DNA of 64,000 bases from a virus. The stretch covers positions 1-64,000 of IMG/VR virus record IMGVR_UViG_3300031576_000013; one strand, written 5' to 3'. The translations under genes were made by a program, and so were the position numbers. Of this stretch, positions 2,231 to 60,400 are shown piece by piece. The notes beneath the pieces were generated by a model, which saw only the letters and a list, made by a program, of their open reading frames with translations, ran no database searches and was not told the DNA's origin. Numbering within the stretch: the stretch's first letter is position 1; every line of letters starts with the position of its first letter.

Positions 2231-3529
2231 ATGTATAGCGATGCGATAAAAAGCGTGTATATTCCTCGAATGGGTCTCGGGCGATACGAAATCCTCGCAG
2301 CCGACTTCGACCTCGCGAAAAAAGGCTTCCTGCGAGGTCCAGTTATCAAACACGTCGGAGCTTTATCCGCAGCCGTTCTCTCCGATTTCGTGCGCGATCG
2401 ACACGTACGCAATCACCTGTTTCGCGGTTGCCGATTTTACTCGTGGGACGATCTGATTCGTGAATCTGCATTCAAGATCCAGGTGCCCGAAACGGCGGAA
2501 GCCACGCTCAACTTATTTCAAATTCAAAAAGGTGCGTCTCCCCGCCCACCTGGTTATTCACGTTTACATCCACCCGACCATCTCCTGACAACCAACGCCC
2601 CACTTACCGATGCAAAACAAGTCTTCAAGACGAACCCGTGGAAGCTGTGGAAACATCGTCGCTTGCCGCCAGGTGTCTTCGCCACCGCCCTCAACAACCT
2701 CCTCCCAAAACAACCGAACGAAACCCCCGAGGAGGAGCGCGCACGCCTTCTCACGATCCTCTCGATCCCCGAGCCCTACGCACCCCCCGGCGGACTTCCG
2801 CCCCCCGACCCCCACCCTCCACTTCCGTGTCTGCGCTCGTACGTACCGGTCGAGATAACCAAGGCGGACTTCCTCGCGCTCCCGATCTTCGACCGGCGCA
2901 CCGACCGGCCGCTCCCGACCGTCGAGGTCGGCTACACGTGGAAGTTCCTGAACAATAACTATGCGCATCGGCGCCTCGAGAACCGCACCGAGTTCTGGCG
3001 GGCGCAGTACGCCGAACCCGTCCCGCGCAACATCGTGCTCATGCGCAACGCCTTCGTCATCCGCGACACGGACGGCAAGCCGCTCGATCACTACGAGCTG
3101 CTTCTCGAGATCCAGGAAGACGTGTTCAAGGCGACGGGCGTGAAGATCCTCCCCAACTCCGAGATCCAAAGAAAGGCAGAAACCCGCCTTGCCGCGCAAG
3201 AAACAAGAAGGAGCGCTTGGAATTCGGCCACGCCGTCCGCTCCATGTGATAGATGCGGCCACACAAAGGAAAAACACCTCTCCTCCGGCTGCCAGTTCGC
3301 CAAGGACACCATCGCGGAGTGCGACTGTTTTCACTTTTCGATTCGCAATTCGATTTCATCTTCGAATCAGGATCAGGATCCGGATCCTGATCCGGATCCT
3401 GATCCGCATTCCTTATCGTCATCGGGGAACCCAGAACAGGGAGCTTCACTCGACAAACTCGACGACGAACTCGAAGAATTCGAAGCGATGGCCACGCCTT
3501 TTGGAACGAGGGGTACGTCTGCGAGATAG
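2231..3529 (+). CDS. Hypothetical protein with C-terminal Cys/His cluster and DP repeat
   Basis: 432-aa ORF; CDRCGH...H...C...CDC; (DP)n tail; start uncertain. Confidence 0.75.
   Translation: MYSDAIKSVYIPRMGLGRYEILAADFDLAKKGFLRGPVIKHVGALSAAVLSDFVRDRHVRNHLFRGCRFYSWDDLIRESAFKIQVPETAEATLNLFQIQKGASPRPPGYSRLHPPDHLLTTNAPLTDAKQVFKTNPWKLWKHRRLPPGVFATALNNLLPKQPNETPEEERARLLTILSIPEPYAPPGGLPPPDPHPPLPCLRSYVPVEITKADFLALPIFDRRTDRPLPTVEVGYTWKFLNNNYAHRRLENRTEFWRAQYAEPVPRNIVLMRNAFVIRDTDGKPLDHYELLLEIQEDVFKATGVKILPNSEIQRKAETRLAAQETRRSAWNSATPSAPCDRCGHTKEKHLSSGCQFAKDTIAECDCFHFSIRNSISSSNQDQDPDPDPDPDPHSLSSSGNPEQGASLDKLDDELEEFEAMATPFGTRGTSAR
3365..3406 (+). repeat. Hexamer repeat GATC(AG/CG/CT) encoding DQDPDPDPDPDP
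   Basis: Read directly. Confidence 0.85.
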
Positions 3530-3554
3530 GCCATCTCAACATGAAAACAATCTC

Positions 3555-3584
3555 TTGACTTTGTATCTCATTCCGTAGTACACT
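3555..3584 (+). promoter_or_regulatory. Sigma70-type promoter for the histone-like gene
   Basis: TTGACT-18 nt-TACACT, followed by GGAGG RBS before 3619. Confidence 0.55.
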
Positions 3585-3618
3585 CGTTCCAGGTCGACAA
3601 CCCGGAGGAAATACGGCA

Positions 3619-4095: not shown

Positions 4096-4104
4096 AGGCT
4101 CCGC

Positions 4105-4305
4105 GTGAAGGATCATCGTCCGTCGAAGGCGGCGGTGTTCTTCGCCCTGGCATTCTTCGCCGCGAATATCTGCATTGCCGCGCCCACGTTCAGGATCTTT
4201 TCATGGATCCTGAACGGGCTCGGAATGTGTGGTGTCTTGCTCGGTCTATGGCTCGAAAGGCTCGAACGCAAGCGGCTCGGAGAGCCCCGCGCCCCGGCCA
4301 ACTGA
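4105..4305 (+). CDS. Small two-TM membrane protein
   Basis: Two hydrophobic segments and a basic C-terminus (holin-like topology). Confidence 0.6.
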   Translation: MKDHRPSKAAVFFALAFFAANICIAAPTFRIFSWILNGLGMCGVLLGLWLERLERKRLGEPRAPAN

Positions 4306-4323
4306 TTCCCTTATCGGACCAAA

Positions 4324-4577
4324 TTCCCCTGCTCTGGATCCCAGATGACGGCTATGGCACACGCGAATGTACACTCCGCCGCTTGAAATCGCACCGCCGT
4401 TCGCGGTGGCGGGTTCATTCGAAGTTCATCGTGCGCGGTCACTGGCGCAACCAAGCCTTCGGCAAGAAGCGCCTCGAACGCAAGAAAAGGTGGATCGCGG
4501 CTTTCTGGAAAGGCCCGAAAAGCGGCCCCAGTCTCGCGAGACTCTACGAAGTCTTGAAGCCGGACGAAAAAGATTGA
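4324..4577 (+). pseudogene. C-terminal fragment of a phage protein with VRGHWR...WI..FWKG motif, no clear start
   Basis: FIVRGHWRNQAFG...RWIAAFWKGP is a common phage C-terminal motif; flanked by two direct copies of the dispersed motif. Confidence 0.45.
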
Positions 4578-4623
4578 TCGAAACAAAATTCCATTTTCTG
4601 GGTTCCCCGATGACGGTAACGGT

Positions 4624-5985: not shown

Positions 5986-5989
5986 ATCA

Positions 5990-8190: not shown

Positions 8191-8220
8191 TTGCTATTGT
8201 ATAGCGGTTTGTGCTACAAT
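8191..8220 (+). promoter_or_regulatory. Sigma70-type promoter, likely leaderless transcript
   Basis: TTGCTA-18 nt-TACAAT with extended -10 TG; ATG 6 nt downstream with no RBS. Confidence 0.55.
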
Positions 8221-8226
8221 ACGTTC

Positions 8227-8523
8227 ATGGTCAAATCGCCTGTTAATCTCTCCGAACAAGATCTCCCCTCTTCTGGATCCCCGACAAAAGTAACCAAGCG
8301 TGGCAATGTCGATAGGATCGTCAACCATCCGAAGTGGTCGAAATTCTTCATGATCGTCATCTTGGGTACCGCAGCCATCTTGATCAAAAAGATCGCGCCG
8401 ATCGTCGAAGTCTATGAAGCACACGCCACGGGCGGGCTGCATTACACCGAGCGCCAGAGTCGTGCTCTCGAAGCCATCGCAGCGGAGCTGAAACAACTTC
8501 GTCAAAACGCGTGTCCCAGGTAA
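8227..8523 (+). CDS. Single-TM membrane protein
   Basis: FFMIVILGTAAILI segment, C-terminal helix. Confidence 0.65.
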   Translation: MVKSPVNLSEQDLPSSGSPTKVTKRGNVDRIVNHPKWSKFFMIVILGTAAILIKKIAPIVEVYEAHATGGLHYTERQSRALEAIAAELKQLRQNACPR

Positions 8524-8583
8524 GTTGCCAATAACAGTCATCCGGGAACCCAGAGGAGGGGATTTTACCGAAGGTATTGACCG

Positions 8584-10196: not shown

Positions 10197-10259
10197 CGAT
10201 TCGCCAATGCCCCCCTTTCTGGATTCCCGGACGTTAGCAACGTAACCTTCACGCAAAAC

Positions 10260-14979: not shown

Positions 14980-15594
14980 TCATGGCAAAAATTCGACAAT
15001 GTTTGTCATTATAGCCTCGGTGACCTCGTCTTTCGCCCAACTACCCTCTACGGTGCACCAACGCGCGTCCCACAGTCCCAGCGTATGTGCGTTCTGCCAA
15101 GCGCGTTTGTAGTAGTCGCTTACCTTCTTCTGAAACGCTTGGTCGCTCTCGTAGACGTCGTCTTTTTGCGCGTTACGTTCGGCTAGTCGTCCTCCACGCG
15201 TTACAGGATCCGTCGAAATCAAGACTTGTAGATCGGCGCGGGGCAAGCAGCCGGCCATTTTGTACAACCAATCGATCGGCAAACCGTCCGCGCTTCCGTA
15301 CACGATCGAACTCATCACCCAGCGGCCGATCAGTATGATCGCTCCGCGCTCGTTCCAGTTCGTGATCTCATCGGCTGCTTCGAGCCGATCCGCGAGCAAC
15401 ATACACTGCAAGGCCAGGCGATCGTTCGGCAGGCAGTCTTTCAGCTTCTCCATGGCTGCGTTTCCGATCATCGTTCCCGTCCGAGGGAACTCGACCGCAC
15501 GAACCGAACAACCCAGCGACGTCAAACGCTCGCTCAAAAGCGCGATTTGCGTCGACTTACCCGCGCCGTCCGCGCCTTCGATCGCGACGATCAC
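14980..15594 (-). CDS. tmk: Thymidylate (dTMP) kinase
   Basis: IEGADGAGKST P-loop, EFPR, ADR, GRWVMSSIVYG, LPRADL. Confidence 0.93.
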   Translation of the reverse strand: MIVAIEGADGAGKSTQIALLSERLTSLGCSVRAVEFPRTGTMIGNAAMEKLKDCLPNDRLALQCMLLADRLEAADEITNWNERGAIILIGRWVMSSIVYGSADGLPIDWLYKMAGCLPRADLQVLISTDPVTRGGRLAERNAQKDDVYESDQAFQKKVSDYYKRAWQNAHTLGLWDARWCTVEGSWAKDEVTEAIMTNIVEFLP

Positions 15595-15788
15595 CGTGAT
15601 CCTTGACCCACGCTCGCCCGCACGAAACCGCCAGGAATCTTTTCCAGTTCTCCCAGTCTTCTCAGGGCTATACGTATGACCGCCGACTGTGACACACCGA
15701 GCTTCTCGCTCAGGGCGCGGATCAGCTCCATCGCCGTTTCGTCGAGTCTAAAGGCACGGAGCGTCAAGTGGCCTCGCGCGACAGGCAT
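15591..15788 (-). CDS. Ribbon-helix-helix (CopG-like) regulator
   Basis: AFRLD...LSEKLGVSQSAVIRIAL. Confidence 0.85.
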   Translation of the reverse strand: MPVARGHLTLRAFRLDETAMELIRALSEKLGVSQSAVIRIALRRLGELEKIPGGFVRASVGQGSR

Positions 15789-15798
15789 CGTGGTCTAC

Positions 15799-15828
15799 AA
15801 CGTAGCACGTTTCGCTCTACGCCGCCAA
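15799..15828 (-). promoter_or_regulatory. Putative promoter of the RHH-tmk-sspB operon
   Basis: TTGGCG-18 nt-TACGTT with extended -10 TG, about 10 nt before the ATG. Confidence 0.4.
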
Positions 15829-15916
15829 CGTCAACGAACACGAACACGAATGCTCCTCGACCCCCTCGCCCCCTTCTGGGTTCCCAGATGGATAACTGGC
15901 TGCCCTGAAAGCAGCG

Positions 15917-21426: not shown

Positions 21427-22740
21427 TTACGGAGTCACGGTCACGTTCCACGTAGCCGGTGTGATCGGCACGCCCGACGTATTTCGGATACCGACCGTGA
21501 CGTGTACGACGAGCGCCTGCCCGATCGTCAACGCCGCTGACGGTGTAAACTGAACCTTCGTGTTGCCTGCCAGAAACGTGAAGCCGCCGGTCGCGAGTGG
21601 AACGCCTCCCACCGTGATGAACATGGTCGACGTCGTCACGCTTGCAGGGTCGATCGCCGAGGAAAATGTCACCTCGAACGTCGGCGGGTTCGGTCCTGGT
21701 GCGACCGACCAGATGCTCGCTATCGGGTAACCTGGTGTCGCTTGATCCGGCGAATTGATCGTGATGTCTGAGATCGTCGGTCCTACTTCCAGTGCGCCGA
21801 AGTCGATTGGATATATGTCGTTCGGTTTATCCTCGATCAACGAAAGGCGTACGGCCAGATCGCGAAAACCACCAAGATCCGGAATGTGCATCTTCAGGTC
21901 GGTTCGATAAAACGGTTCTTGGGCCGGGTGCTGGACCACCCGTGATCGTGTGACGAGCCCCGCACCCGTATCGATCATCAATGAAACCTTCCACCGATAT
22001 CCCTTCAAGAACGCCGTGATTGCGCCGCCCGACTCCATCACCAAGGCGGCCCCCGGTCTCTTGACCAGCAGTTGTCGGGCGAGGCCGTTGGTCGGGTTGA
22101 GCCTACCGAGAATTCGGTACGTGCCATTGTTCACGCCGCCGCCAGCAACGCCGCCGGTCACCACGATTTCGCGGCCCACGTCAGCCTCGCTGAGACCAGG
22201 CGAGACTATGAGCCTCTCTCCAACACCGACCTTGCCGCCGCCGGCGTAGACGCCGTTGCCTGTCGATCCGTTCAGCGAGAATGCGGTCGGACTGATCACC
22301 GTGATTGTGAAACGCCCATTCGCCGCCGTGTTGCCGGTGACGAATGCGATCCCGACCTCCTGACCGGTCTCGAGCTCATGTGGCTCGGCCGTCGTGATGA
22401 CGATGGGATCGGGATGCGGCGGATTCGTTGCGCCTGTTATGGTTCCCGAGGAAGCGCTGACGATTTTAAAGCCTGCCGAGATGTCCCCACCGCTTACCAC
22501 GCTTTGCGGCTGGCGGAATCGAAGCTGGCTTCCGATCAGTCCCGTCCCCGTCGTGTCAAATGTCACCAGCGGTTTGATCTGTATGTAATCGCCGTACGCC
22601 AGGTCGTCGATTCGATCGATCGGAACGTCCCAACCGAGGCTCCAGACATAGGCCGCGTCCCCCGCTTTCGACTGCTGGGGTAGGAGCCTGCCCTGTGTCA
22701 GCCCAAGGTAGGCTGTCAACGGTGTGTTACCAGCGGCCAA
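21427..22740 (-). CDS. Virion protein with FCCH-like beta module and C-terminal Ig-like (Big_5) domain
   Basis: ITGATN..PIVITTA.PH.L..G..V.I..V.GNTAANG.FTITV; VTFSSAIDPASVT...FTP.AAL. Confidence 0.7.
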   Translation of the reverse strand: MAAGNTPLTAYLGLTQGRLLPQQSKAGDAAYVWSLGWDVPIDRIDDLAYGDYIQIKPLVTFDTTGTGLIGSQLRFRQPQSVVSGGDISAGFKIVSASSGTITGATNPPHPDPIVITTAEPHELETGQEVGIAFVTGNTAANGRFTITVISPTAFSLNGSTGNGVYAGGGKVGVGERLIVSPGLSEADVGREIVVTGGVAGGGVNNGTYRILGRLNPTNGLARQLLVKRPGAALVMESGGAITAFLKGYRWKVSLMIDTGAGLVTRSRVVQHPAQEPFYRTDLKMHIPDLGGFRDLAVRLSLIEDKPNDIYPIDFGALEVGPTISDITINSPDQATPGYPIASIWSVAPGPNPPTFEVTFSSAIDPASVTTSTMFITVGGVPLATGGFTFLAGNTKVQFTPSAALTIGQALVVHVTVGIRNTSGVPITPATWNVTVTP

Positions 22741-22785
22741 TGTCCCCTCTTCTGGGTTCCCGGATGACGACTACTGGCAACTTGG

Positions 22786-26414: not shown

Positions 26415-26460
26415 GACTGTCCCCCTCTTCTGGGTTCCCGGATGACTGTTACCAGTCACC

Positions 26461-28307: not shown

Positions 28308-29894
28308 TTATTCGCCCCTGCGCCCGTAGCGGTTGTCGGCGTAATTGCCAGACGTGTCGTGCGACTTTCGGCCCTTGGTCTTGCGCCCGCGCTTATGGGT
28401 GGCACCACCTGCCTTGAGCAAAGCAGCAGCCTCGACGACCTTGGTGCCGGGCAGCACGAGCGCTTCTTGCTCCTTCGTGGTGGCGAATTTGCGGCTTCGA
28501 ACCTCGATGATCGGGCCGCCTGTGAACGCCTTCGTGATGGAGCCCTCGCGCTTCAGCTGAAGCTCGGTCACGTACCCGTTCGAGTCGATGGTGTGCTTCG
28601 CTTCGGTGATCAACCAGGTATCGTCGAGGATTGGCGTTTCGAAGTTCTTGAGCAGCACGGTCTGTCGTGCGAGCAAACGTGGATCTCCGACAAGCCGCAG
28701 GCGCAGCGACCACTTGCGTTTCTTCCGTTCGCGGAACAATCGATTGGCGGTCGATTCGACCTTGTCGAAGGCAGCCGGCCGAAAATCCTCGAGGACAGTG
28801 TTTGTGAGGTTTATTTGACCTTGCTTGCCGAGAGGTTTTTTACCATACAGTGCGGTGCCTTCCACGGTCTTCCTGCCTTTGGCGTTGGCTGTCGCTACGT
28901 CATTCGGAGTCGGCTCGACTTCGGTTTGATCTTGAGGCGCCGAACCGGCCGTGGCCTGTTCCTCGCTGTTTGCGAGATTGCCGGGAGCGCCGCCTTTATT
29001 TTTGGAAGTTTCGAACTTTCGGCTGCGCGCATCCTTTTGCGTACTTGGGTCGTATCCTGCTACTTCGATCCCAGCAGGTATTCCCAACGTCAGGTCCGCG
29101 TCGAAGTCGAACCCAAGAATGCTGGAGTCGTCTAGATCGATTACGACGTTCGGCGTCGCGGTATCGTCGCGCGCCGCGAACAATAAACCATCGCGCCCTA
29201 CGGCGTAAATAAGTCCATGATGATCCGCAAGCTTCTTCAAGAACTGGCCGTAGCTCATCTCGGCTGTGCGAATAATGCTTTTGTGGACGACGTCAAGCTC
29301 CTTCGGAATTTCAACGCGAGCACGCTTGGCGCCCTTTGCTGCCTCGCTGAACCCCATGCGCTTCGCGGTTTGCAGCACGATCTCGGAGAGCGGCTTGCCC
29401 TCGAACAGATCGTTTCCCGTCGGGGGCCTGGTCGTGTAGAGAATGCCCGGCGCGAGCGCCTCGATCGTCACGATGTAGCCTCGACGGCGCTTCGCCCATT
29501 TACGCCCTTGGACGAGTCCTATTTTCAGTCGGCGAACGATCAGGCGTCGTTTCTGCGACATCTTGCCGGGATAGCCCCACGAAGCGTCTATGACCGCGCC
29601 ATGTGCTAACCTGTTCGGATCGACGAACTGACCTTCGTCGTCGATGAATGACAGCTCGCAGATGTCGAGCTTCTTGTCGTTGTCGGTAAGCACAAAGCTT
29701 TGCAAACGATCGATTGACCTGACTTCGAATTCTTTCGCAAACACGTCGCTCTGGACGTTGATCGAATCAGGGAACCCAGAAACAGGCGTGATGCGCACGA
29801 CCGGGAGAAAGCGGTCATACCCCCGGTCGGAGGGATCGCCTTGACCGGCTTCCTCGGGCCGCGAAAGCGCCGGAATCGAGCTCAGGAAGGGCAT
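28308..29894 (-). CDS. Baseplate hub / late control D family protein
   Basis: WGYPG; FLKKLA..HG; LVGDPRLLA...V.L....W.ITEAKH.I...GY.T. Confidence 0.9.
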   Translation of the reverse strand: MPFLSSIPALSRPEEAGQGDPSDRGYDRFLPVVRITPVSGFPDSINVQSDVFAKEFEVRSIDRLQSFVLTDNDKKLDICELSFIDDEGQFVDPNRLAHGAVIDASWGYPGKMSQKRRLIVRRLKIGLVQGRKWAKRRRGYIVTIEALAPGILYTTRPPTGNDLFEGKPLSEIVLQTAKRMGFSEAAKGAKRARVEIPKELDVVHKSIIRTAEMSYGQFLKKLADHHGLIYAVGRDGLLFAARDDTATPNVVIDLDDSSILGFDFDADLTLGIPAGIEVAGYDPSTQKDARSRKFETSKNKGGAPGNLANSEEQATAGSAPQDQTEVEPTPNDVATANAKGRKTVEGTALYGKKPLGKQGQINLTNTVLEDFRPAAFDKVESTANRLFRERKKRKWSLRLRLVGDPRLLARQTVLLKNFETPILDDTWLITEAKHTIDSNGYVTELQLKREGSITKAFTGGPIIEVRSRKFATTKEQEALVLPGTKVVEAAALLKAGGATHKRGRKTKGRKSHDTSGNYADNRYGRRGE

Positions 29895-30242: not shown

Positions 30243-30279
30243 CTAGATCTCCCCTGTTCTGGGTTCCCAATGTCTGTAA

Positions 30280-41131: not shown

Positions 41132-41163
41132 GCCCCCTCTTCTGGGTTCCCCGATGGATTACT

Positions 41164-42250: not shown

Positions 42251-42577
42251 TTACCATTTGCGGGGTTGGCTCAACGTGATCTTCTTGATCCTGCGCACCG
42301 CCGACGCGAACTTCGCGGATTCCGAGTTCACGAAATCGATTGCGAGCTGTTCAACACGGTTGTCTGGATCCAAGAACCGGAACATGAATTCCCGCTCATC
42401 GCGATAGGATTCGGCAAGCGGCAAATCCCTCATTGAGAGGTAGGACGCGAGGTCGAGATCGTAGACTTCGACTTTGTTGTTGCCGATGACACTCCAACCC
42501 CGGGAACGATCGACGCGGGTGCCCGCCCGAAAGGGCGGAGATTCACTCCCGTTTGGCTGACGCGGTGCGTTCACCAC
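42251..42577 (-). CDS. DUF5659-like small protein
   Basis: DLDLASYL...F.F.D pattern; start uncertain. Confidence 0.55.
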   Translation of the reverse strand: MVNAPRQPNGSESPPFRAGTRVDRSRGWSVIGNNKVEVYDLDLASYLSMRDLPLAESYRDEREFMFRFLDPDNRVEQLAIDFVNSESAKFASAVRRIKKITLSQPRKW

Positions 42578-45988: not shown

Positions 45989-48900
45989 TCAAGTAACAAA
46001 TGGCGCGGCCAAAATCGAGTAGACCGGATCCGCCTCCTTGATCGCGGTTCCACCTATCGACCATCCGGTAAATTCCCCCCGTTTTACGGCTTCCCACAGC
46101 TCGTCGTCGACGATTCGTGCCGCAAGCAACCAAGTACCTTTTTTTACTGGCTGCTCTGCAACCGTGAAGTCTAGCGGTGCGAGATACGATTCGAGGATCT
46201 TTACGCGACCATCAATCAATTTTCGGTGCATCAAACCGATATGGCCGTAGCGCTCCATGAACCCATGCGCTGCTTTGCGAATCTCGTCGGAGGAATAAAC
46301 GTCGTTCTGCGCGTCGACGGTCTCGGGTTCGAGAACGATTCCCAAGACGTAACGCTCCTCCTTCGCGGTTTCTTCGGCCTTGAACAGCTTGACCGCGTGT
46401 GTCCAGGGGCGAAGCTCCAGTTTTGAAACCGGCGTCGACGAGGATGTCGCTTCTTTCTCGACGATCTTTTCGTAGTCGCGTCGAAGCGCGTCGCAGATTC
46501 GATGGGCGGCTTCTTCGTCGTGGCCTCGCGTCTTTTGATCGGCTACGCAAGCCTCGAAATTAGCGAAGCCGGCGAAGGGTTTTTCGATCTCGACAGAAAC
46601 CTTCGCTTGCAATTGACATCCGAGATCCCAGAGCGGGGGAGGCGGTTCGGAAGCGCGCTTCTTGATTTCGTCGGGGTTGAGCATCGCGACGACTTCGTTG
46701 ACCGTCATCGGTGCCTCGTCGGTGACATCGATCACCGTTGGGGTGAATCCCGTGATCTTCCACTTGCCGGCTGTCATGCGGTTGAAGAGCACCTCCGTCA
46801 CTTCGATGCGTAGAACATCGCCCGATTCGGCCTTCACCTTGCTGTTGAAGGATTTGCCCGCCGGAGCATATTTTTTCCCGGCGAGCTCGATCAAGTTGGG
46901 CCAGTTGCCTTGTTCCTTCTCGGGAATTGGTCCGAAGGCGTAGAAATAGTTGAAGACGCCCGGCGAATCCTTGACCGGGTGCTTGTCGTAGACGATTCCG
47001 CGCACCTCGCGAATCAGCTTGATCTTCGCCCAACCGTCGCTTTCGCCTCCAAGAGAGTAGGTCGCATTCGCGGATTTGAGCATCGCGCCTTCGGAGCCTG
47101 GCGAGGCGGCTGCCTTCGCGATCAACGAGTCCAGGCTCTCATGCGTTCTCGCTGTGCCCAGCGCCGGTACGAGTTTGATGCGGCTGCTTTGACGCTTGTT
47201 GAGGAACGCTTCCAGCAAACGGCGGCGTTCGGCTTGATCTTTTTGCGTGATGTTTCCCTCGTCGGGCAAATACAGCGCGTCGAAAATTTGTAGTTGGACG
47301 TTTGCGTCGTCGACTACTCCGGTCCCTCGGAACCTGGCCAAGTCCCTGCGGGGCGTGGCGGCGCCGTCGACGAACTCCATGAATTCTGCATCGAGCACGA
47401 ATGGCCCAGGGAGTTTTGCCAGCTCGGCCGTGACGCCGGGCCAGTTCTTCATGTAGTTGCGCTGCTCGGTTTTCCGCGAAAAGAACTCTTCGGTGATAAT
47501 GAAAACGCGGTCGCCATCTTTCTGAAGGGCGACGCGAAAACCGTTCAGTTTCGGTTCGACGAGGATTCCGCTGTCGAGCAACGCGCCGGTTGCGAAGTCT
47601 TCGTGCAGCCGATCGAGCTCACCACCACGAAACTCGTTCGTCTTTCGGGCTGCGACCTTCATAGGCTTGAAGACCGCGAGCGGCTTCAGCTCCTTCCGAT
47701 CCCCACCTTTGTCGTCGGCGTCCTTGATCTTTCGCGGATCCCAAATCTGGACGTCCTCGATCACCGTCCCGTCTTGTAGAGAGACGTCGCGCACCTCGTG
47801 CGCCTTTGTGATCTTCTCACCGGGGACAGCGCGTGAAGGTTGTTTTCCGCGCTCCCATTGCCACAAATCACCGGCTTCCTCTTCGGCAACCAGCACAAAT
47901 ACCCCGTCATCGGAGACATCCGCTAGATCGCCTCCGCGTACACGGATCTTCTTGAACTGGCGTTGGTCATCTAGAAATTCGATCTTGCCCCTTGACAGAA
48001 TTCGCATCTGCGACGGCGTATTCTTCGAGGGATTGAATTCAACGCCGTGGACCTTTTCGCCGGGCGGCGCATCCCCTTCATAGGCAAGCAGCTTGTCGGC
48101 CTCCACGTTCGTGAGCGCACGGCGAATCACTGCGATCTTGTCGTTCTCGAAGGGGTCGCCTTCGAGTTGAAAATCCTCGATCTCATTCTCGCCGCGCTTG
48201 ATGAACAGGTGAAACACCTGCGAGGAAGGCGCGGCACGGATCACGACCTGGCCCTTGAACCGTTGCCACGTCAGCGTGTAGGGCGCTGCCTTCAATTGCT
48301 TGAGCAGTCGCGTAGCGTTTTCCGTAGCTATGGTTGCCGCGATCCGGTCCATAGCTTCTTCCACGGTCCGCGCCTCGACGATCTCCGGCGCGATGTCGGC
48401 TGAAGGCCAAAACTTCTTGGTCTTCAAGGTCAGTCGGAAATCGCGGTTGATCTGTACGGTCTCAGCCGTCACGAGATGAGCTTCGATCAATGCGTTGCGG
48501 GTCGCTTCGACCTCTGATGGCTTATCCTTTTCCCAGTAACGAAATTCAGGCGGAATCGCGTTCTTGATTCCGAGCGGAAGCGCGGATCGGCCCTTCGGAG
48601 GGAGTGTCTTCGTTGCAATCGCGCGGCGCCGCAGAACGCTGGGCGTCAGATCCTTGTTGAACATCGCAACCCAGAAAGCTTCGCCCTCCCGGGTGCGCCG
48701 GCCCGTCTCGACTTCTTCTTCGGACGCGTCCCCTCGGCCCACGAGTAATCTAAAAGTCAGCAGCCCATGAAATTTTTGATCGCCTTCGACGGCGTACTCG
48801 GCAAAGAACGGCTTGAGAATCAGGTGTGTGACTTGCGGGCGTGCGATTCGAACGATCACGCCTTCCTCCTCGGCGGTTGCGCCCACTTCGCCCGCCTCGA

Positions 48901-50533
48901 ACTTGCGCCCTTCGATTTCGAGCCAAATCGGCGGCTGTAGGGACTTCACGGCGGCGAACACGCGATTCGGCGCGTTCATTGGTTTATTCCAGTACGAGCC
49001 CTCCATGTTGAAGGTGACTGCGAGTCGTTTGCCTTCAGGTACGGTGTCTACATCAGGCACTTTTCCTGCGCGCTGGATCGCAAGCGTGAAACCCGTGAGG
49101 AAATCCTCGCCGGTCTTGACACGGAAATCTCCGTGAACCGACCGACCTCTGAAATGACTCTGGAATACGGCCGCGCGGGGTTCTTCCTTTTCGGGATAGA
49201 TCAGGATTGGGTTCTGCTGCTTCTCGGCGTCTTCGTCGCGCATATCGACGACGCGTTTTTCGGCGACGGGATGGACGACGAGATCGTAGAGATCTACGTA
49301 GCTCGTGTATGGACCGCAGCCACCGGTATCTGGATCGGAGTCGTCATGGAATTGAACTCGCTGCGAAATCTCCGGCGGTAGCATCCGACCGAGCCTGAAC
49401 TTCAAAACTTGCAGTGTCTTCTCATCAAGTGGTCCGTCGATGAGCACGTCGACGTCGTTCTTCGTTTCGCCGTTGTTCACGATCGAACCGACTAATCGAA
49501 CGACCGGTGCGCGAATCAGGAAGGGCTTCTCGAAGTGTTTGAGAACTTCTTCGAGTTTGAGTGGCGGGTATTCGCCCGTCGATCCCGGATGGATCGGAGC
49601 ATATCGATCGGTCTTGCCCGCCTTCGAAATATCATCGGTTTCTTTGGTACGTGCCACGCCTGAAGGTCCAATCACGAGGGGCTTCCTGCGGCGAAGCCGA
49701 CGCAGTTCGGCTTCGATTCCGAGTGGGTCTTCCACCTTGTCGACCAGCGCGCGAGCTTCGCGCGTCAGCTCGTCGTCAAAGGGGTGTTTCAAATCGCGCC
49801 GTGTGAATTCTTCGATCATGAACGCTTCAGCGTTCACCAGATCTTCGCGGCCAACGCCTTCCGCCGACAGCTTGTCGTTACCAGCGAAAAGGCTTGCGAA
49901 CGCGGCGTGCAATTCCCTGTCGAGCCGCTTGAGTTTTGCGTCATCGAAAGCCTTCAGGTTGCGAGGCGTGATCTCCGTCAGGTCGAACGTTGCGTGTTGA
50001 CCCGGAACCGTGTCCAGATCTGCCGTGGTCAGATCGCCCTCACCTTTTGCGACCGCCTCTTCTTCGAGATCGATCTCGGGGCCGTATCGCCGCCCGGGCG
50101 GTGTCTTCTTCAGCTCGATCGGAGGATCGAAAGCCCGAACCAGCTCCATCGGGATGTAGAACACCGGCTTGACCGGTTCGAACTCGGCCAGCGAGAACTT
50201 GTCGATCCCCTCACGCAGCTCCTTCGGGACGTCGTCGAGCGACGCGAACTCCTGCGGCTCTCGTAGAACCACGATCGCCCAGGCGAAGGTCGCCTTGGCC
50301 TCTGTCGGCTCGATCTCGTTTAGCAAGATCTGCGCTTCTCCGCTGCGTCCCTCTTGCTTGCGTCGAGACAGGACGCCTGCGCTCTTGTCCTCTTGAAGCC
50401 GTGCGACGAGCATTGGCGGGTCCGGCATCTTCAATACCGGCAGTGGGCCTGCCGGCATTTCGAACTTGCGCTGCTCTTCTGGGTTCCCCGGCAAGGGAAC
50501 GACCGCCTCAACGTGGGCGTTCGGGGTCGACAT
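45989..50533 (-). CDS. Polyprotein: nucleotidyltransferase + two LigD-like 3'-phosphoesterase domains + ATP-dependent DNA ligase + XkdF prohead serine protease
   Basis: LVGS..9..DVDVL (~aa 345); QSHFRGRSVHGDFR (~aa 460); ligase motifs EPKLNGFR (K995), LDAE, FDALY, EGAMLK, WAKIK; XkdF VLEPE.VDAQ.D...IGLMH...GWSIGG (~aa 1390-1500). Confidence 0.9.
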   Translation of the reverse strand: MSTPNAHVEAVVPLPGNPEEQRKFEMPAGPLPVLKMPDPPMLVARLQEDKSAGVLSRRKQEGRSGEAQILLNEIEPTEAKATFAWAIVVLREPQEFASLDDVPKELREGIDKFSLAEFEPVKPVFYIPMELVRAFDPPIELKKTPPGRRYGPEIDLEEEAVAKGEGDLTTADLDTVPGQHATFDLTEITPRNLKAFDDAKLKRLDRELHAAFASLFAGNDKLSAEGVGREDLVNAEAFMIEEFTRRDLKHPFDDELTREARALVDKVEDPLGIEAELRRLRRRKPLVIGPSGVARTKETDDISKAGKTDRYAPIHPGSTGEYPPLKLEEVLKHFEKPFLIRAPVVRLVGSIVNNGETKNDVDVLIDGPLDEKTLQVLKFRLGRMLPPEISQRVQFHDDSDPDTGGCGPYTSYVDLYDLVVHPVAEKRVVDMRDEDAEKQQNPILIYPEKEEPRAAVFQSHFRGRSVHGDFRVKTGEDFLTGFTLAIQRAGKVPDVDTVPEGKRLAVTFNMEGSYWNKPMNAPNRVFAAVKSLQPPIWLEIEGRKFEAGEVGATAEEEGVIVRIARPQVTHLILKPFFAEYAVEGDQKFHGLLTFRLLVGRGDASEEEVETGRRTREGEAFWVAMFNKDLTPSVLRRRAIATKTLPPKGRSALPLGIKNAIPPEFRYWEKDKPSEVEATRNALIEAHLVTAETVQINRDFRLTLKTKKFWPSADIAPEIVEARTVEEAMDRIAATIATENATRLLKQLKAAPYTLTWQRFKGQVVIRAAPSSQVFHLFIKRGENEIEDFQLEGDPFENDKIAVIRRALTNVEADKLLAYEGDAPPGEKVHGVEFNPSKNTPSQMRILSRGKIEFLDDQRQFKKIRVRGGDLADVSDDGVFVLVAEEEAGDLWQWERGKQPSRAVPGEKITKAHEVRDVSLQDGTVIEDVQIWDPRKIKDADDKGGDRKELKPLAVFKPMKVAARKTNEFRGGELDRLHEDFATGALLDSGILVEPKLNGFRVALQKDGDRVFIITEEFFSRKTEQRNYMKNWPGVTAELAKLPGPFVLDAEFMEFVDGAATPRRDLARFRGTGVVDDANVQLQIFDALYLPDEGNITQKDQAERRRLLEAFLNKRQSSRIKLVPALGTARTHESLDSLIAKAAASPGSEGAMLKSANATYSLGGESDGWAKIKLIREVRGIVYDKHPVKDSPGVFNYFYAFGPIPEKEQGNWPNLIELAGKKYAPAGKSFNSKVKAESGDVLRIEVTEVLFNRMTAGKWKITGFTPTVIDVTDEAPMTVNEVVAMLNPDEIKKRASEPPPPLWDLGCQLQAKVSVEIEKPFAGFANFEACVADQKTRGHDEEAAHRICDALRRDYEKIVEKEATSSSTPVSKLELRPWTHAVKLFKAEETAKEERYVLGIVLEPETVDAQNDVYSSDEIRKAAHGFMERYGHIGLMHRKLIDGRVKILESYLAPLDFTVAEQPVKKGTWLLAARIVDDELWEAVKRGEFTGWSIGGTAIKEADPVYSILAAPFVT

Positions 50534-50915: not shown

Positions 50916-51170
50916 CTACGTCAGCGTGATCAAACCGGTTTTCAGCTTCAATGCCACGCGGATGCCTTCGCCGTCTCTGGAGATTATCGCGTCAACTTTT
51001 CCCAGGCACTCTGGGCATACAACCATCGCGACCCCACCGCCGTATCTGACGGTCACTTGTGTCTCCAGCACGCTCACCCGTTTGCACGCACGACACGCAC
51101 CGACTCCCAGCGCTGCTGCCTTTTGCGCAGCTACAAAATCCGCGTACCCGGCCGGCCGATCCCCCGTCAT
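50916..51170 (-). CDS. Small Zn-ribbon protein
   Basis: CRAC...CPEC; ATGA-coupled to the portal. Confidence 0.65.
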   Translation of the reverse strand: MTGDRPAGYADFVAAQKAAALGVGACRACKRVSVLETQVTVRYGGGVAMVVCPECLGKVDAIISRDGEGIRVALKLKTGLITLT

Positions 51171-52954
51171 TTTTCAGGTATCTCCTCGCCGCCAGTTCCT
51201 ATTCCGGCTAACCGTTTATCATCGCCAGCTTCCCTGCGCCCCTGTGCGTGCCCGTTTGGCTCCTGGCGATGTTCGGCCCGGCCTTCCGAGGCGATTTGAC
51301 TTGTCAAAGCTCGAATCCTTCCAGCCACGCGCTCCCCCTCTTCTTCTGGATTCCTTGATGGGGAACCTTTTCGAGCTTCCTGAAGGGTCAACTTGAAGGG
51401 CTGTTGTGTCCACGGATCTGTCAAAACTGGCAGTTCGCGGTTGAACACGTCGGTCGCTAGCGCGCGGCCCTCAGCTGGTGTGAGAACGCCTGCGTCGGAG
51501 AGCGTAGCTACGATCTCGGCCAGCACTTCGGGATCTTTTGTCGTCGGAGAGTTGGACTCGAATTTCCAGAAGGAGATGTGAAGTTCAGGCAGTAACTTTC
51601 TATTTATCACTTCGTCGAACTGGTTTCGCAGCGGGGTGAAGACTTGATCTTCAGCTAGACGCAATGCGGCAAAAGCCGTGGCGCGATTGATCGCCCGGTC
51701 GCGCCCCACCAAAATTCGTGGCAATCGGAAGCTCGACCCGATTTTTTCCCAGTTGCCCTCGTCGTAGTTTTGAAACAATGCATCTTGCTGCTGCGCTTCG
51801 CGTAGCGGGACGAACTTCATCGACGGGACGATTCCAGACGTACCTCCGGTCGATTTTTGGCCTTCGGCTTCGAGGACAAGAATCTTGTGGAAGTTTTTTC
51901 GTCCTTTGATGTTGCTCTCGATGAACTCCTCGATGCGCGGCACAACCCCTTTAGCAAGCCGTCCGCCAGCGACGAGCAGCGCAAGCGGAGGGACGGTCTT
52001 GCTCTGGAAATAACTGAGGTTCACCTCGTCCAGTTCCCGGGAACCCAGAACAGCGGGTAGATTGCCGATCCATTGAGGGACTCCGTAAGTGGAACCAGGC
52101 GTCGGGATTGCGAAGTGCAAAATTTCGTTGGCGGGTGCGTCCAGTGGCGGCTTGTCGGGATCGGCTTCGAGTGCTGCCGGCGACGCATAAATCTTGCCTG
52201 TTGCTCGCGAGACGGTGCGTGGGTCGCCGAATTCTTTGAAATACGCCTTGATCTTGCCCTGAATCGGATCGATCTCGGCGAACTTGCGAAAGAATCGGCG
52301 TTGAACGACTTCCGTCGTCGAGATGCGTGTGGTTGGAATGCGTTCTTTTGTCTCAACAGGGATCGGATCGAGGGGCAGCAAACGCATCGTCACCGACGGT
52401 GCGAGCACCAACCGCGCCGGCATTATTCTGTTGTCGCGTAGGATTTCCCAATATGCGTTTCCAGTCGTCAGCAAGTCTCGACGTGTTCGAGAGCGCAGCT
52501 CGACGAAGGAGTAATCGGGGCAACAGACGGCAAAGAAGGTACGCAGGCGATTGATTTCGATGCGCGCAACTCTGCGTAATTCTTCGAGTTTTGCACGAAC
52601 GGCTTCGGAATCCGGCTCGACGAACGGCTCGCGGCGTTCCTCGCTTAGAACCAACCGTTCGACGATCATCTCGTCCCGGATATCGGCTTCGGCACCAGGC
52701 CGTGTGAGGTCAATTCCGGCAGTGTATTTGTGGCCGAACGCGTCGACGTTCGTGACGATCGCCTCAATATGCTGAGACAGCGACGACGAAAGCTCGTAGA
52801 GCTGAAGCAGCGTTTCGGGCGCGTACTTCGGTTCGAGGACGCCGGTTACGGCCTTTCCTTTTTGAGTGAGCGCTGTGAGCCACTCCACGGTCGAGACGGG
52901 GGCGTCCCTAAAGGTCGCCTTTCCAACGACGTTTTTCTCTTTCTTTTTCGGCAC
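51167..52954 (-). CDS. Portal protein (PBSX/HK97-like)
   Basis: DL..TGNAY.EI.RD; YFKEFGD; NEILHF; YGVP.W; FRLP.IL.G; NRATA; GVLTP.E.R. Confidence 0.93.
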   Translation of the reverse strand: MPKKKEKNVVGKATFRDAPVSTVEWLTALTQKGKAVTGVLEPKYAPETLLQLYELSSSLSQHIEAIVTNVDAFGHKYTAGIDLTRPGAEADIRDEMIVERLVLSEERREPFVEPDSEAVRAKLEELRRVARIEINRLRTFFAVCCPDYSFVELRSRTRRDLLTTGNAYWEILRDNRIMPARLVLAPSVTMRLLPLDPIPVETKERIPTTRISTTEVVQRRFFRKFAEIDPIQGKIKAYFKEFGDPRTVSRATGKIYASPAALEADPDKPPLDAPANEILHFAIPTPGSTYGVPQWIGNLPAVLGSRELDEVNLSYFQSKTVPPLALLVAGGRLAKGVVPRIEEFIESNIKGRKNFHKILVLEAEGQKSTGGTSGIVPSMKFVPLREAQQQDALFQNYDEGNWEKIGSSFRLPRILVGRDRAINRATAFAALRLAEDQVFTPLRNQFDEVINRKLLPELHISFWKFESNSPTTKDPEVLAEIVATLSDAGVLTPAEGRALATDVFNRELPVLTDPWTQQPFKLTLQEARKGSPSRNPEEEGERVAGRIRALTSQIASEGRAEHRQEPNGHAQGRREAGDDKRLAGIGTGGEEIPEK

Positions 52955-57468: not shown

Positions 57469-57475
57469 CGCAAAA

Positions 57476-60400
57476 ATGTCGATCCACAAAGCTCTAGCAG
57501 CTACCGAAATCCACATTTTGTACGCGTTCTCGTTCGCGAGCGCCGCCGCTCGTGAAGGCGCGACTGGCTTGGTTGCAGCCGATGTCGGGAAGGTTGCATG
57601 GCAGACCGACGATAATTCCTTCTGGGTTCTTACCGACGAGAGCCCGGTCACGTGGGTTTCGCTCGGCGGAAGCGGCGGTTTCGCTTCGTCGATCGCGATC
57701 AAAAATCAGTGCCGGGTGGCGAGCACCGCGAACATCGCATCTCTGTCGACGCTGTTGACGCTTGATGGCGTGACAGTCGCTGCCGGAGATCGCGTTCTCG
57801 TCAAGGATCAAACAACGCTTAGTGAGAACGGCATCTACGTCGCCGCTGTCGGCGCCTGGACGCGAGCGAGCGACTTTGATTCCACCGCTGAGGTCAAAGG
57901 CGGCGTCCTTGTCGTTGTCTCGGAAGGCACGACGCAGTTTGATTCGATTTGGACGCTTGCGACCAACGATCCGATTACAGTCGGCGTCACCGGCCTGGTC
58001 TTCACTACCGGTACGGTTACGCTCACAACGGCGGCGCCAGCCGATGTCACCAAAGCCGCAGCCGTCGTCGGCGTAGCGATTACCGCTGCCAGGGCCGATC
58101 ACAAGCACGACATCTCAACGGCTGCCGCCGCTGAATCTATCGATATTGGCGATACGGCCGCCGAAGGTTCTGCTTCTTCGCTTGCCCGCTCCGATCATCG
58201 TCACGCCTTCCCTGCTCCCTCTTCTGGGTACCCCGTCAATGTCGAGAATTCGGAATCTGATGGGACCGCGACGACGTCCGCCAGATCGGATCACCAACAT
58301 AAGCTCGGCATTGGAACCACCAAGGGCGACGTTCTCGCGCATGATGGTACGACGTTTCAGCGGCTTCCGGTCGGGGTCGACAGTTTCGTCTTAACGGCCG
58401 ACACCGCCGAAGCAAGCGGCGTCAAGTGGAACGCACCGAGTGCCGCCGACTGGCCGATTGGAACTGTTCGGTTCTTCATGCTTTCGCCCACCGGGTTGGA
58501 CACGAACGTCGGTTTTGCCGATGGCGCTCCCGATGCTGCGAAAGCCGTCAAGACAATCGCTAAGTTGAAAACGCTGATCCCCCGTTTCGGCAACGGGCGT
58601 TCGGTCGTAATCGTGATCGAGGCTGGCGATTACTCTACCGAGGATCTCGAGTTCACCGATTACCATGCGTATCGGTTGTTTCTGGTACGTGGAACTGTGA
58701 CCGATCCGACAGGCGCATCTGTAGCGTTTGCCAATGACCTTGCAGACAAGATCGTCGATGGTTATGTCCGCGCACCAAGTACTGAAACGCTTGGTTACAG
58801 AGTCGATGGCGCTCCAACGGTCACATTATTTTCCTGCGTAAAAAACGTCGATGGTACTCCTCCCGGATTACCCGTCGAACCAGCCCTGCTCGGAATGCGT
58901 GTTCGCTTTGACGCCCTGACGCCGACCGTCGCATTGCGGAACGTGACGACGACTATCTGGAAAAACACTACAACTGCAATCACAGATTCAAATGATTTTC
59001 CAGCCGTACCTGTAGCTGGCGGTCCTGGCGTCGGCGACGTTTTCTATATCGAGCGGCCTGGTGTCGACGTCGATCAGTTAGTGGTCGATGGTATGATAAC
59101 GCGTACGAGGCTGGGAACATCGCCTACACCCATAGCGATCCCACCAATATTTTCAGGGATCAATGCTAAGGCTGTGACTACGCCGATCATAATACAGGGA
59201 AATGTTCGTATCGACCTGGTCGGTGTTCATGCTGCCGGAGCGACCGCACTTCCATTCACCGCGCAATACGTGCCAAATCTGCGAATGGTCGGCACGTACA
59301 CCGATGAAGCTGGCGTCACGATAAGTGTCGGTAATGGCGGGCGGATTGTTGCGACAGCTAGCACAATCACCGCTTCGTTGACCAACGTTGGTGGGCTTTT
59401 TCAACGTACCGCTTTTGTAGGCGGTTCAGGTGTTTTTGCAGCCGGCGGCGCGGGTCGAGCGTTCAACCTTTCCACCGGCAACGTCATCGTTGGCGGGCGT
59501 TTGGCGGCGTCAGGCGCCGGGAATCTGTTCAGCATCGGCAACGCCGGTGGCACCACCGCACGTCGACTTCGCTTCACGGCAAACACCGCCGGCGTCGATT
59601 TGGATTTGACCGACGCCAACCATTTCAAGGTTTTTGGCGTCGAGAACGACACGTTACCCGCAGGGATTGGACCGATCCGCTTGAATGGAAACTTTCCTTC
59701 CGTCGACCTTGATGACGTCGTCATGAGTGCTGCTGGGTCAGGGTTCGGCTTGAATATGAATTGTCGTCATGCCCGCGTGAACATGGGCACGACGACGGCG
59801 ATCACGATTACAACTCCGACGGGACAGGAGATCATCTCGGGAACCGGCGGCGGCGGCCCGGTGTTCAGGTTTGCAGACGTTCAGGATCGTCATATTACCG
59901 TTAGGGACGATCTCGGCAACGTCTTCACGAGACATCAAACTACCGATATCAACACAGCTCCCGAAATCGGGTTGACGCTCTCTGCGACTGCTTACCCATT
60001 ATATGCGCAATTCAGAGTCGTACGGCGGGTAACCGGCGCGGCCGATGGAGAGTTCGGCGTCGCCAAGGCTGATGCGGCGAGCACGTCGGATCGCATTCTC
60101 GGTGTCCTGATGACAGATACGTTAGTCTCGCCGCGTGGGCGCATCGCAACACACGGTCCCGCAGTCTTGGAATTCGACGCGGACCCGGGAACTGCTCCCG
60201 CGCTCGTTTATTTATCGCACCTGGACGACGGCAGTATCGCAGGTTTGGGGCGAATCACGCCGCCACCCAGCAACGGTTTGAACCAAAAACTTCGTCTTGG
60301 ACATTTGCTTCGCCGTTTAACGACGATCGCGCCGTTTCTCGGCGTCGTCGATCTGCATCCCGAGTTGATCCCGATAACATCGGACGGAGCAACGCCATAA
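57476..60400 (+). CDS. Large fibre/spike protein with three ARxDHxH repeats and a beta-helix-like body
   Basis: DRVLVKDQ...ENGIY domain; ARADHKH, ARSDHRH, ARSDHQH; TTKGD..RLPVG..VLTAD motif. Confidence 0.8.
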   Translation: MSIHKALAATEIHILYAFSFASAAAREGATGLVAADVGKVAWQTDDNSFWVLTDESPVTWVSLGGSGGFASSIAIKNQCRVASTANIASLSTLLTLDGVTVAAGDRVLVKDQTTLSENGIYVAAVGAWTRASDFDSTAEVKGGVLVVVSEGTTQFDSIWTLATNDPITVGVTGLVFTTGTVTLTTAAPADVTKAAAVVGVAITAARADHKHDISTAAAAESIDIGDTAAEGSASSLARSDHRHAFPAPSSGYPVNVENSESDGTATTSARSDHQHKLGIGTTKGDVLAHDGTTFQRLPVGVDSFVLTADTAEASGVKWNAPSAADWPIGTVRFFMLSPTGLDTNVGFADGAPDAAKAVKTIAKLKTLIPRFGNGRSVVIVIEAGDYSTEDLEFTDYHAYRLFLVRGTVTDPTGASVAFANDLADKIVDGYVRAPSTETLGYRVDGAPTVTLFSCVKNVDGTPPGLPVEPALLGMRVRFDALTPTVALRNVTTTIWKNTTTAITDSNDFPAVPVAGGPGVGDVFYIERPGVDVDQLVVDGMITRTRLGTSPTPIAIPPIFSGINAKAVTTPIIIQGNVRIDLVGVHAAGATALPFTAQYVPNLRMVGTYTDEAGVTISVGNGGRIVATASTITASLTNVGGLFQRTAFVGGSGVFAAGGAGRAFNLSTGNVIVGGRLAASGAGNLFSIGNAGGTTARRLRFTANTAGVDLDLTDANHFKVFGVENDTLPAGIGPIRLNGNFPSVDLDDVVMSAAGSGFGLNMNCRHARVNMGTTTAITITTPTGQEIISGTGGGGPVFRFADVQDRHITVRDDLGNVFTRHQTTDINTAPEIGLTLSATAYPLYAQFRVVRRVTGAADGEFGVAKADAASTSDRILGVLMTDTLVSPRGRIATHGPAVLEFDADPGTAPALVYLSHLDDGSIAGLGRITPPPSNGLNQKLRLGHLLRRLTTIAPFLGVVDLHPELIPITSDGATP

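Follow-up and report, generated by a model that had tools for sequence, protein, structure and literature searches.

The first 64,000 nucleotides (64 kb, hereafter the window) of the IMG/VR phage record IMGVR_UViG_3300031576_000013, a linear entry of 94,808 bp with an estimated completeness of ~64% and a G+C content of 57%, contain many dispersed copies of an asymmetric DNA word of ~25 bp and ~30 bits, with the consensus CATCS-GGGAACCCAGA-AGRGGGG. This repeat is non-random, clusters at gene starts, is read in a single frame in its sense coding copies, and is absent from the relatives of the phage. The explanation that best accounts for these features, to which we assign a probability of about 0.4, is that the copies are DNA sites for one phage-specific factor that would act at the 5' ends of genes, the purine-rich arm of the word having probably been exapted as a Shine-Dalgarno sequence.

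Number, sequence and position of the copies

Allowing up to one mismatch, the core TCTGGGTTCCC was detected 14 times in the window versus 0.72 occurrences expected from dinucleotide-preserving shuffles (5 in the largest shuffle), while exact cores number 15 in the whole record and the reversed control gave 0. An iterated matrix of 45 columns and ~30 bits recovered 22 sites in the 94,808-bp contig at 24.7-45.8 bits, 16 of them within the window, and its scan of the contig returned no site at 15-24 bits, indicating that the family is sharply bounded. The original prediction, made on the letters of the window alone, had reported at least 18 copies; the repeat is real and its six example coordinates are all correct, but 16 strong copies are present in the window, the others, such as 14035 and 57621, being core-only look-alikes. 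Its proposal that conservation acts at the DNA level withstands the refuting test set with it, as many matches in codon-preserving shuffles, since these yielded 0.54 in-gene sites of at least 24 bits versus 15 observed, gene calls here coming from a crude codon-usage model of our own.

Upon scanning metagenomes for the 18-mer, 52 single matches were obtained, of which only L057, a 7.2-kb contig, was related to the phage. Its three full copies bring the total, together with the 22 of the record, to 25. The 10-bp tandem repeat TATGGTCATA, in at least 5 units, occupies both positions 1-57 of the window and the end of L057 (7140-7211), and because of this common terminal repeat L057 is very probably an adjoining piece of the same phage, the assembly having probably broken at the repeat. 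The 7.1 kb that L057 contributes hold small genes on the minus strand (RadC-like JAB, DUF4326 and DUF4120), as well as a tRNA-Leu(TAA) at 2685-2769, directly upstream of a word copy.

On the GGGAACCCAGA strand, the extended consensus reads (GTWAC-N2-3)-TCATC-S-GGGAACCCAGA-A-S-R-GGGG. CCCAGAA and GGGAA hold the most information, the G-run a moderate amount and the left outer arm little. Conservation is thus far better in the right arm and the G-run than in the left arm, and that of GTWAC, which is weak, partly reflects stop codons of upstream genes. The word had been described as a quasi-palindrome with a TCTGGG-TT-CCCAGA dyad, a description that suits solely the copy at 15875, where the dyad is perfect; with information so unevenly spread over the arms, the dyad is largely nominal and the remaining copies are asymmetric. 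Conserved base pairing with compensatory change was not found either by RNAalifold on 13 sense copies, which retrieved only a 3-bp CCC/GGG pairing at -2.8 kcal/mol, or among the core variants GGGATCCC, GGGTACCC, GGGAATCC and GAGATCCC, which break the arms and are not compensatory. Moreover, five of the nine antisense copies (25-38 bits) retain the G-run, in an orientation in which no ribosome-binding role is possible. This retention, together with the lack of a conserved RNA fold, favours recognition of the word as double-stranded DNA. Canonical promoters (sigma-70, sigma-54, ECF and sigma-32) and LexA, CtrA and IHF boxes were compared by eye with the consensus and rejected.

Fourteen of the 25 copies lie within ~60 nt of a start codon (P = 1.5e-6), and for 7 of the 22 in the record a full-length gene start is found 9-19 nt past the core (P = 5e-9). 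Many of them fill tiny gaps between co-directional genes, with the upstream stop 4-31 nt ahead of the core, ~12 copies being placed in such short operon gaps. At 6-8 of these junctions (including 22739, 26417, 30246, 41129, contig 65500 and L057:6168) the G-run is positioned as the Shine-Dalgarno sequence of the next gene, its GAGG or GGAG standing 4-9 nt ahead of ATG, GTG or TTG, which is not so in the ~17 other copies; the ordinary ribosome-binding sites of the phage are weak GGAG/AGGA, and the far stronger G-run is not of this usual type. Sense copies also occur in the first 20 codons of three genes (TerL, PolA and the polyprotein described below), and 12 of the ~15 start-proximal copies are in sense orientation. 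Intergenic antisense copies are found just ahead of starts at 4585, 10206 and L057:2354, the own Shine-Dalgarno sequences of these genes lying further on. Neither the clustering at gene starts nor the use of the purine run as Shine-Dalgarno sequence formed part of the original prediction. The word also helps to fix several start codons in the annotation.

Copies are present across all modules, on both strands, in genes and between them, with 9 in the structural module and ~10 within coding sequence. They are spaced very unevenly, at distances between 36 bp and 14 kb, none being found in the last 8 kb of the record, and divergent intergenic gaps, where main promoters are expected, hold no copy. 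The copies of the window are as follows (coordinates, strand, score, context):

3419..3443 (+), 44.1 bits: sense, near the C-terminus of gene 2231-3529, read as SGNPEQG
4589..4613 (-), 37.9 bits: intergenic, antisense to the flanking plus-strand genes, ~30 nt before ATG 4645, G-run degenerate
8264..8288 (-), 26.1 bits: core GGGGATCCAGA, antisense in gene 8191-8523, over LPSSGSP
8538..8562 (+), 39.9 bits: sense junction, upstream stop 20 nt before the core and ATG 8584 29 nt after it
10210..10234 (-), 33.7 bits: intergenic, antisense to plus-strand genes, G-run kept, TTG at +10 opening a frame of 4 codons only
15867..15891 (-), 30.4 bits: the only perfect 14-bp dyad, TCTGGGAACCCAGA, sense, 87 bp upstream of the ATG of an RHH gene
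22743..22767 (-), 45.8 bits: fills the 45-nt junction of tail-region genes, TTG of a 437-aa gene 10 nt past the core, GAGG placed as Shine-Dalgarno sequence
26421..26445 (-), 41.7 bits: sense junction, upstream stop 21 nt before the core, ATG of a 517-aa gene 14 nt after it
29764..29788 (+), 24.7 bits: antisense in gene 28308-29894, around residue 36, over VSGFPD
30250..30274 (-), 35.2 bits: sense junction, upstream stop 11 nt before the core, ATG of a 115-aa gene 15 nt past it, GGGGAG placed as Shine-Dalgarno sequence
41133..41157 (-), 40.7 bits: constitutes the whole 31-nt spacer between a 358-aa and a 178-aa gene
46616..46640 (+), 25.9 bits: core variant GAGATCCCAGA, antisense in the 1514-aa polyprotein gene, at the ligase-protease linker
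50470..50494 (-), 27.6 bits: sense, 5' end of the polyprotein gene, codons 13-19 (PGNPEEQ) if ATG 50533 is used, otherwise 19 nt before an in-frame ATG
51337..51361 (-), 26.9 bits: core AGGAATCCAGA, sense, in the variable C-terminal tail of the portal, read as SRNPEEEG
52033..52057 (+), 27.9 bits: core-only, antisense in the portal gene, over the invariant AVLGSRE
58215..58239 (-), 34.7 bits: core GGGTACCCAGA, antisense in a 974-aa tail-fibre-like gene, over PSSGYP

Immediately ahead of the first of these copies, the 432-aa protein encoded at 2231-3529 contains a GATC-rich low-complexity stretch (window 3330-3400, Asp-Gln/Asp-Pro repeats). A minus-strand open reading frame at 4311-4586, downstream of the copy at 4585, was rejected as a gene since it shows no coding potential.

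Pfam and PHROG scans, including ~70 proteins individually scanned against Pfam, revealed a siphovirus-like layout. Small genes to which no function was assigned occupy 2-13 kb on the plus strand, a long structural operon runs on the minus strand from 53 kb to 16 kb, and tail-fibre-like genes lie at 53-66 kb on the plus strand. Past the end of the window are found PolA, UDG, intein-bearing helicases, a PrimPol-like protein and TerL (86.6-88.3 kb), and near the right end of the record there is an intergenic (CA)n microsatellite of ~14 units (contig 93628-93655, L010:13628-13655). TerL and portal proteins identical to those of the record are also encoded on a 116,820-bp contig, a longer assembly of the phage, from whose genome 20-50 kb are missing in the record. 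The structural operon includes the following genes, assigned by Pfam and PHROG:

51167-52954 (-): portal
45989-50533 (-): 1514-aa ligase/protease polyprotein
30952-33294 (-): tape-measure-like protein

Copies within genes and the relatives of the phage

The eight sense copies in coding sequence are all read in a single frame, as (S/P/T)-G-N-P-E-(E/G/Q)-G (P ~5e-4), and the synonymous positions of G-N-P-E are identical across them. Antisense coding copies use all three frames, and it is only to these that the earlier observation of copies read on different strands and in different frames applies. Alignments with homologues place the coding copies in variable loops, linkers and termini, with little change in length. 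Thus, the copy in the helicase occupies a loop between helicase motifs and adds 2 aa, while those in TerL and the portal leave length unaltered. The TerL copy corresponds to codons 5-11, and a 33-nt insertion at this junction is ruled out by N-terminal alignment, because N7-P8 are also present in the relative L012. The core of the antisense copy in the portal gene entails three synonymous choices over AVLGSRE that are used by none of 8 relatives. In all, eight copies lie deep inside genes. In the inter-domain linker of the PrimPol-like protein two copies stand back to back, inverted and with a 9-nt overlap (67021/67057; contig 67021-67101, L009:3021-3101), and in RNA or single-stranded DNA the two could fold into a stem of 12 bp. 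Since the 417-aa PrimPol-like protein has full-length homologues, it is encoded by one gene.

Relatives of the phage lack the word even where gene order is preserved. This is so for the TerL relatives L012 and L013 (~60% identity), syntenic over 73-88 kb, and for the portal relatives L081-L083 (54-59% identity), syntenic over 36-53 kb, and the matrix found no copy when extended to the TerL relatives L012-L018 and 80 portal relatives (~85 contigs). Scanning IMG/VR for the 18-mer retrieved no match, and the word is not a repeat there. Among 185,579 prokaryote species genomes the 18-mer produced only 10 unrelated singletons and no repeat, and the word is therefore not a host repeat. Comparison of 24 kb with GenBank phages by Megablast was without match, and no related locus was retrieved when the protein of the 437-aa gene was used alone as query. 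Such restriction to one lineage is expected of a site that co-evolves with its reader.

The junction between the 358-aa and 178-aa genes (41129) illustrates how a copy may be acquired. Relatives L081 and L083 read GTG-TAATG at this point, with overlapping stop and start codons, while in the present phage TAA and ATG are separated by a 31-nt insert that coincides exactly with the word. Considered together with the coding copies, which occupy their sites in place, this exact insert shows two modes of acquisition, insertion of the whole unit and writing in place. The copies are located between or inside conserved core genes and do not fall at synteny breaks.

Several distant portal or TerL relatives from IMG/VR carry dispersed words of their own, suggesting that lineage-specific words are a habit of this phage group. 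L157 has 12 copies of TGCAGGNACCTGCA, several of them apparently coding in a single frame (VQEPAT), and L116 has an asymmetric 14-mer, CCGGATGCGGGACA, whose 14 copies each precede by 12 nt the start codon of a small gene lacking a Shine-Dalgarno sequence, so that it looks like a promoter for leaderless mRNAs. Palindromes of 18 bp are present in L115 (TGTTCACCCGGGTGAACA, 5 copies just past stop codons) and L097 (TGGAAACCCGGGTTTCCA, 4 copies), and an 11-mer, CGCTTCAACCG, and the sequence GGGGACACGA are repeated 19 and 8 times in L148 and L018, respectively.

Comparison with the syntenic relatives also showed that L081 (3730-4086) and L083 (2664-3020) match only the C-terminal protease part of the polyprotein (residues ~1392-1510), its large N-terminal enzymatic region, including an ATP-dependent ligase domain, being restricted to the present phage or closer kin; L085 matches residues 19-717. 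Portal relatives of ~50% identity bear the source labels of metagenome-assembled genomes of Myxococcales, Polyangiaceae, Kofleriaceae, Sandaracinaceae, Acidobacteriota and Phycisphaerae, which provides a weak hint of the host range of the phage group.

The candidate reader and the competing explanations

The factor proposed here, probably encoded by the phage, would occupy the translation-initiation region or the sequence immediately ahead of it within long operons, and would modulate either the transcription that enters the following gene or the expression of that gene, in the manner of a stoperator or operator array. In this compact genome, the purine-rich arm would double as Shine-Dalgarno sequence at the sense junction copies, which would explain the co-orientation of most start-proximal ones. 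Copies arose in two ways, namely by insertion of a ~31-nt unit into stop/start overlaps and by overwriting of tolerant coding sequence, always as G-N-P-E in the sense direction. An array of sites for one protein was already among the readings of the original prediction, and it is the best one considering that (i) the word is kept on either strand, (ii) it has no conserved RNA fold, and (iii) an invariant protein sequence is synonymously recoded beneath it. On the contrary, the recombination-site, partition and packaging readings offered at the same time find no support, since copies do not mark synteny breaks and cluster at starts rather than being evenly spread.

While the existence, number, non-random occurrence, placement and frame bias of the copies, their absence from relatives and the lack of a conserved RNA fold are results of the analysis, binding by a protein, the identity of the binder and the effect of binding are inferred. 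A candidate can be named among the genes of the phage:

15591..15788 (-): RHH (CopG-like) gene, 65 aa, Pfam RHH_1 (E 1.9e-6), with a weak CopG match in a PDB search

No other sequence-specific DNA binder could be recognised in the 94.8 kb (Pfam scans of the ~70 proteins and six-frame searches), which makes the RHH protein a candidate for reading the word, and the single copy with a perfect dyad lies upstream of its gene. The original prediction had proposed it with a copy ~80 bp upstream; its family is confirmed and the distance to the ATG is 87 bp, the protein remaining a predicted binder. Between this copy and the RHH gene (window 15789-15866, minus strand), a GAGGAG-GTG frame of ~20 codons, whose end appears to overlap the RHH ATG, may encode a leader peptide; no promoter of sigma-70 type was scored in this interval. 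A second proposed binder, the "histone-like" product of 42251-42577, is not supported, as it shows no HU/IHF signature, only a weak DUF5659 match and no PDB relative, and Bac_DNA_binding has no match anywhere in the contig; its gene sits among head genes conserved in relatives that lack the word. The products of 3619 and 13559, the other two proposed binders, contain no recognisable domain, PDB sequence searches with all four returned only the weak CopG match of the RHH protein, and look-ups of the small proteins encoded just downstream of two copies gave no usable match.

Several observations weigh against sites for a phage-encoded factor. RHH proteins usually bind short symmetric or tandem half-sites, not an asymmetric word of 25 bp. 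Six-frame searches of the 94.8-kb record, which is ~64% complete, detected no Phage_integrase, sigma region 2, HTH_3 or HU, so that a classical immunity-repressor system is not visible in it. Orientation relative to transcription is not significantly biased (16 sense and 9 antisense copies, P = 0.23), about one third of the copies are far from any start, and sense copies outscore antisense ones (P = 0.027), as would also suit a function at the mRNA level. Finally, the 31-nt insert at the TAATG junction would also suit a copy-and-paste element without regulatory role.

The first alternative, which we regard as rather unlikely, is that the word is an operator or enhancer of translation initiation acting on mRNA, like the SAS elements of Cluster K mycobacteriophages, which provide a precedent (PMC3203893), or the RegA regulon of T4. 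Sense copies would then be initiation regions in which a strong G-rich Shine-Dalgarno sequence is preceded by a sequence that a factor, either associated with the ribosome or an RNA-binding one of the phage, would recognise, and antisense copies would be by-products of the spread of the cassette. The strength of the G-run ahead of the starts of at least 6 genes, the predominance and better conservation of sense copies near starts and overall, respectively, and the insert at 41129, where coupling of translation through TAATG is exchanged for an own Shine-Dalgarno sequence and ATG, are all in agreement with this idea. However, it would leave without function 9 antisense copies that are beyond chance, no conserved RNA structure was found, and it accounts neither for the G-run being retained in antisense copies nor for the three intergenic antisense copies directly before starts that have their own Shine-Dalgarno sequence, nor for the eight copies deep in genes.

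Somewhat more doubtful is a bolder variant in which the word would be a regulatory cassette that writes itself, a 31-nt unit comprising the factor site, a Shine-Dalgarno sequence and sometimes a start codon. By short-patch annealing recombination it would copy itself into stop/start overlaps and tolerant loops (as G-N-P-E), rewiring the genome of one lineage to one regulator, and the words of relatives would represent parallel takeovers.

It is improbable that the word is the promoter of a transcription system specific to the phage and encoded in the part of its genome missing from the record, be it an RNA polymerase of its own or a redirected polymerase of the host. Sense copies would then give rise to mRNAs with short leaders, and the other copies to antisense RNAs. 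Promoters of single-subunit RNA polymerases have the size and information content of this asymmetric word of ~25 bp and ~30 bits. Copies directly upstream of genes in every module, several of them along the late operon, the ~64% completeness of the record and the 14-mer placed 12 nt before small-gene starts in L116 also speak for such a role. Nonetheless, no RNA polymerase or sigma factor was matched in Pfam and PHROG scans of the large proteins or in six-frame searches, that for the polymerase being weak, as its control was silent. The antisense orientation of 9 of the 25 copies likewise departs from T7-like promoters, which are all co-oriented and have their own polymerase. Besides, the core abuts the Shine-Dalgarno sequence, leaving almost no room for a transcription start site and leader, no AT-rich melting segment is present, and divergent intergenic regions are devoid of copies.

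Equally improbable is a self-propagating or neutral junction mini-repeat of ~31 nt, spread by short-patch recombination and surviving where harmless, without a dedicated regulatory role. It would be consistent with the exact insert at TAATG, the burst confined to one lineage, the occurrence of both orientations with an inverted back-to-back pair at contig 67021/67057, and the confinement of coding copies to loops, linkers and termini in one tolerated frame, and the AAA_24 ATPase and PD-(D/E)XK nuclease encoded by the phage could support short-homology annealing. In some copies identity extends past the core (AAGTTGCCA in those at 22739 and 8522; CATTGGC in those at 22739 and 10206), but these shared flanks are not significant, with a run of 9 versus a shuffle maximum of 10. 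Unlike simple insertions, coding copies replace sequence at nearly constant length (+2 aa in the helicase, 0 in TerL and portal), copies are not at synteny breaks, and their enrichment at starts exceeds that predicted from tolerance alone. No transposase-like gene was seen, and the hairpin is too weak for REP/RAYT-type mobilisation; REP and REPIN elements are abundant in hosts, intergenic and form stable hairpins, features to which 10 singletons in prokaryote genomes, a weak hairpin and 10 coding copies do not correspond.

Dispersed site arrays with other roles are known, such as the nicks of T5 and phiKMV and the centromeres of N15, and both the presence of copies on both strands, within and between genes of all modules, and the PrimPol-like protein and DnaB-like helicase of the phage might suggest signals for primase or replication restart, site-specific nicks, or partition, condensation or packaging sites, but this is very unlikely given the irregular spacing (36 bp-14 kb), the lack of copies in the last 8 kb, the unexplained start clustering and built-in Shine-Dalgarno sequence, and the failure to find any ParB-like or HU-like gene in the 94.8 kb searched.

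Relation to other dispersed phage words

The SAS elements of Cluster K mycobacteriophages have the 13-bp consensus GGGATAGGAGCCC and stand 3-7 bp upstream of starts in the non-structural arm, in one orientation and with the Shine-Dalgarno core included (Pope et al. 2011, PMC3203893), and their ESAS extensions carry, further upstream, an imperfect inverted repeat for which RNA pairing finds no support in the variants (PMC3203893; PMC12699233), as in the present word. Both are phage-specific asymmetric repeats (10-20 copies for SAS) located few bases before starts together with a Shine-Dalgarno sequence, which in the present word applies to 6-8 junction copies. In both, the stop codon of the preceding gene sometimes overlaps the repeat, matches in the host and in other phages are rare, and function is unproven. 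On the contrary, the sequences are unrelated, the present consensus failing to match that of SAS, and the conserved part of the present word lies 5' of the Shine-Dalgarno sequence. SAS are almost all in one orientation, almost never genic and limited to the non-structural arm, whereas 9 of the 25 copies described here are antisense, ~10 are coding and all modules are populated, with 9 copies in the structural one.

Cluster A stoperators (L5 gp71 type) are 13-bp asymmetric sites read by a monomeric two-domain repressor (PMC9283540), which offers a precedent for a single reader of an asymmetric word. They likewise amount to more than 20 asymmetric sites distributed genome-wide in short intra-operon gaps, a placement seen in ~12 of the present copies, and are read, as is proposed here, as double-stranded DNA by one phage protein that co-evolves with them (PMC9283540, PMC6550527). 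They differ in being strictly co-oriented and in belonging to temperate phages with an immunity repressor, while the present word is twice as long, carries a Shine-Dalgarno sequence and is oriented 16:9, in a phage for which no integrase or HTH repressor was found in a record ~64% complete.

The Cluster O repeat is a 17-bp perfect 7-3-7 palindrome with invariant arms (Cresawn et al. 2015, PMC4351075). It resembles the present word in its dispersed copies (more than 30), found in gaps, first codons and gene interiors, in its unproven function and in the independence of its central asymmetry from the direction of transcription. It nonetheless lacks a ribosome-binding part, and the present word is asymmetric, with one perfect dyad only. 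The word thus shares the logic of SAS/ESAS, stoperators and Cluster O repeats but fails the defining features of all three. Promoter-early stem-loop (PeSL) cassettes of T4-type phages flank novel genes in hyperplastic regions, where they mark gene gain and loss. They are similar in that short cassettes with a regulatory role recur where genes meet and may owe their spread to recombination, but the present copies lie between or inside conserved core genes, off synteny breaks.

To our knowledge, dispersed phage-specific DNA words are known almost only from actinobacteriophages, most of them without proven function. A feature of this kind is now found in an unrelated, uncultured soil-type siphovirus, where its evolution is captured in unusually clear snapshots: insertion at a TAATG overlap, overwriting of loops in a fixed frame, a recoded portal peptide, complete absence from relatives at 55-60% protein identity and other words in their place in several of them. 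If the protein that reads the word were found, this phage would provide a compact model of the de novo acquisition of a genome-wide regulon by a phage.

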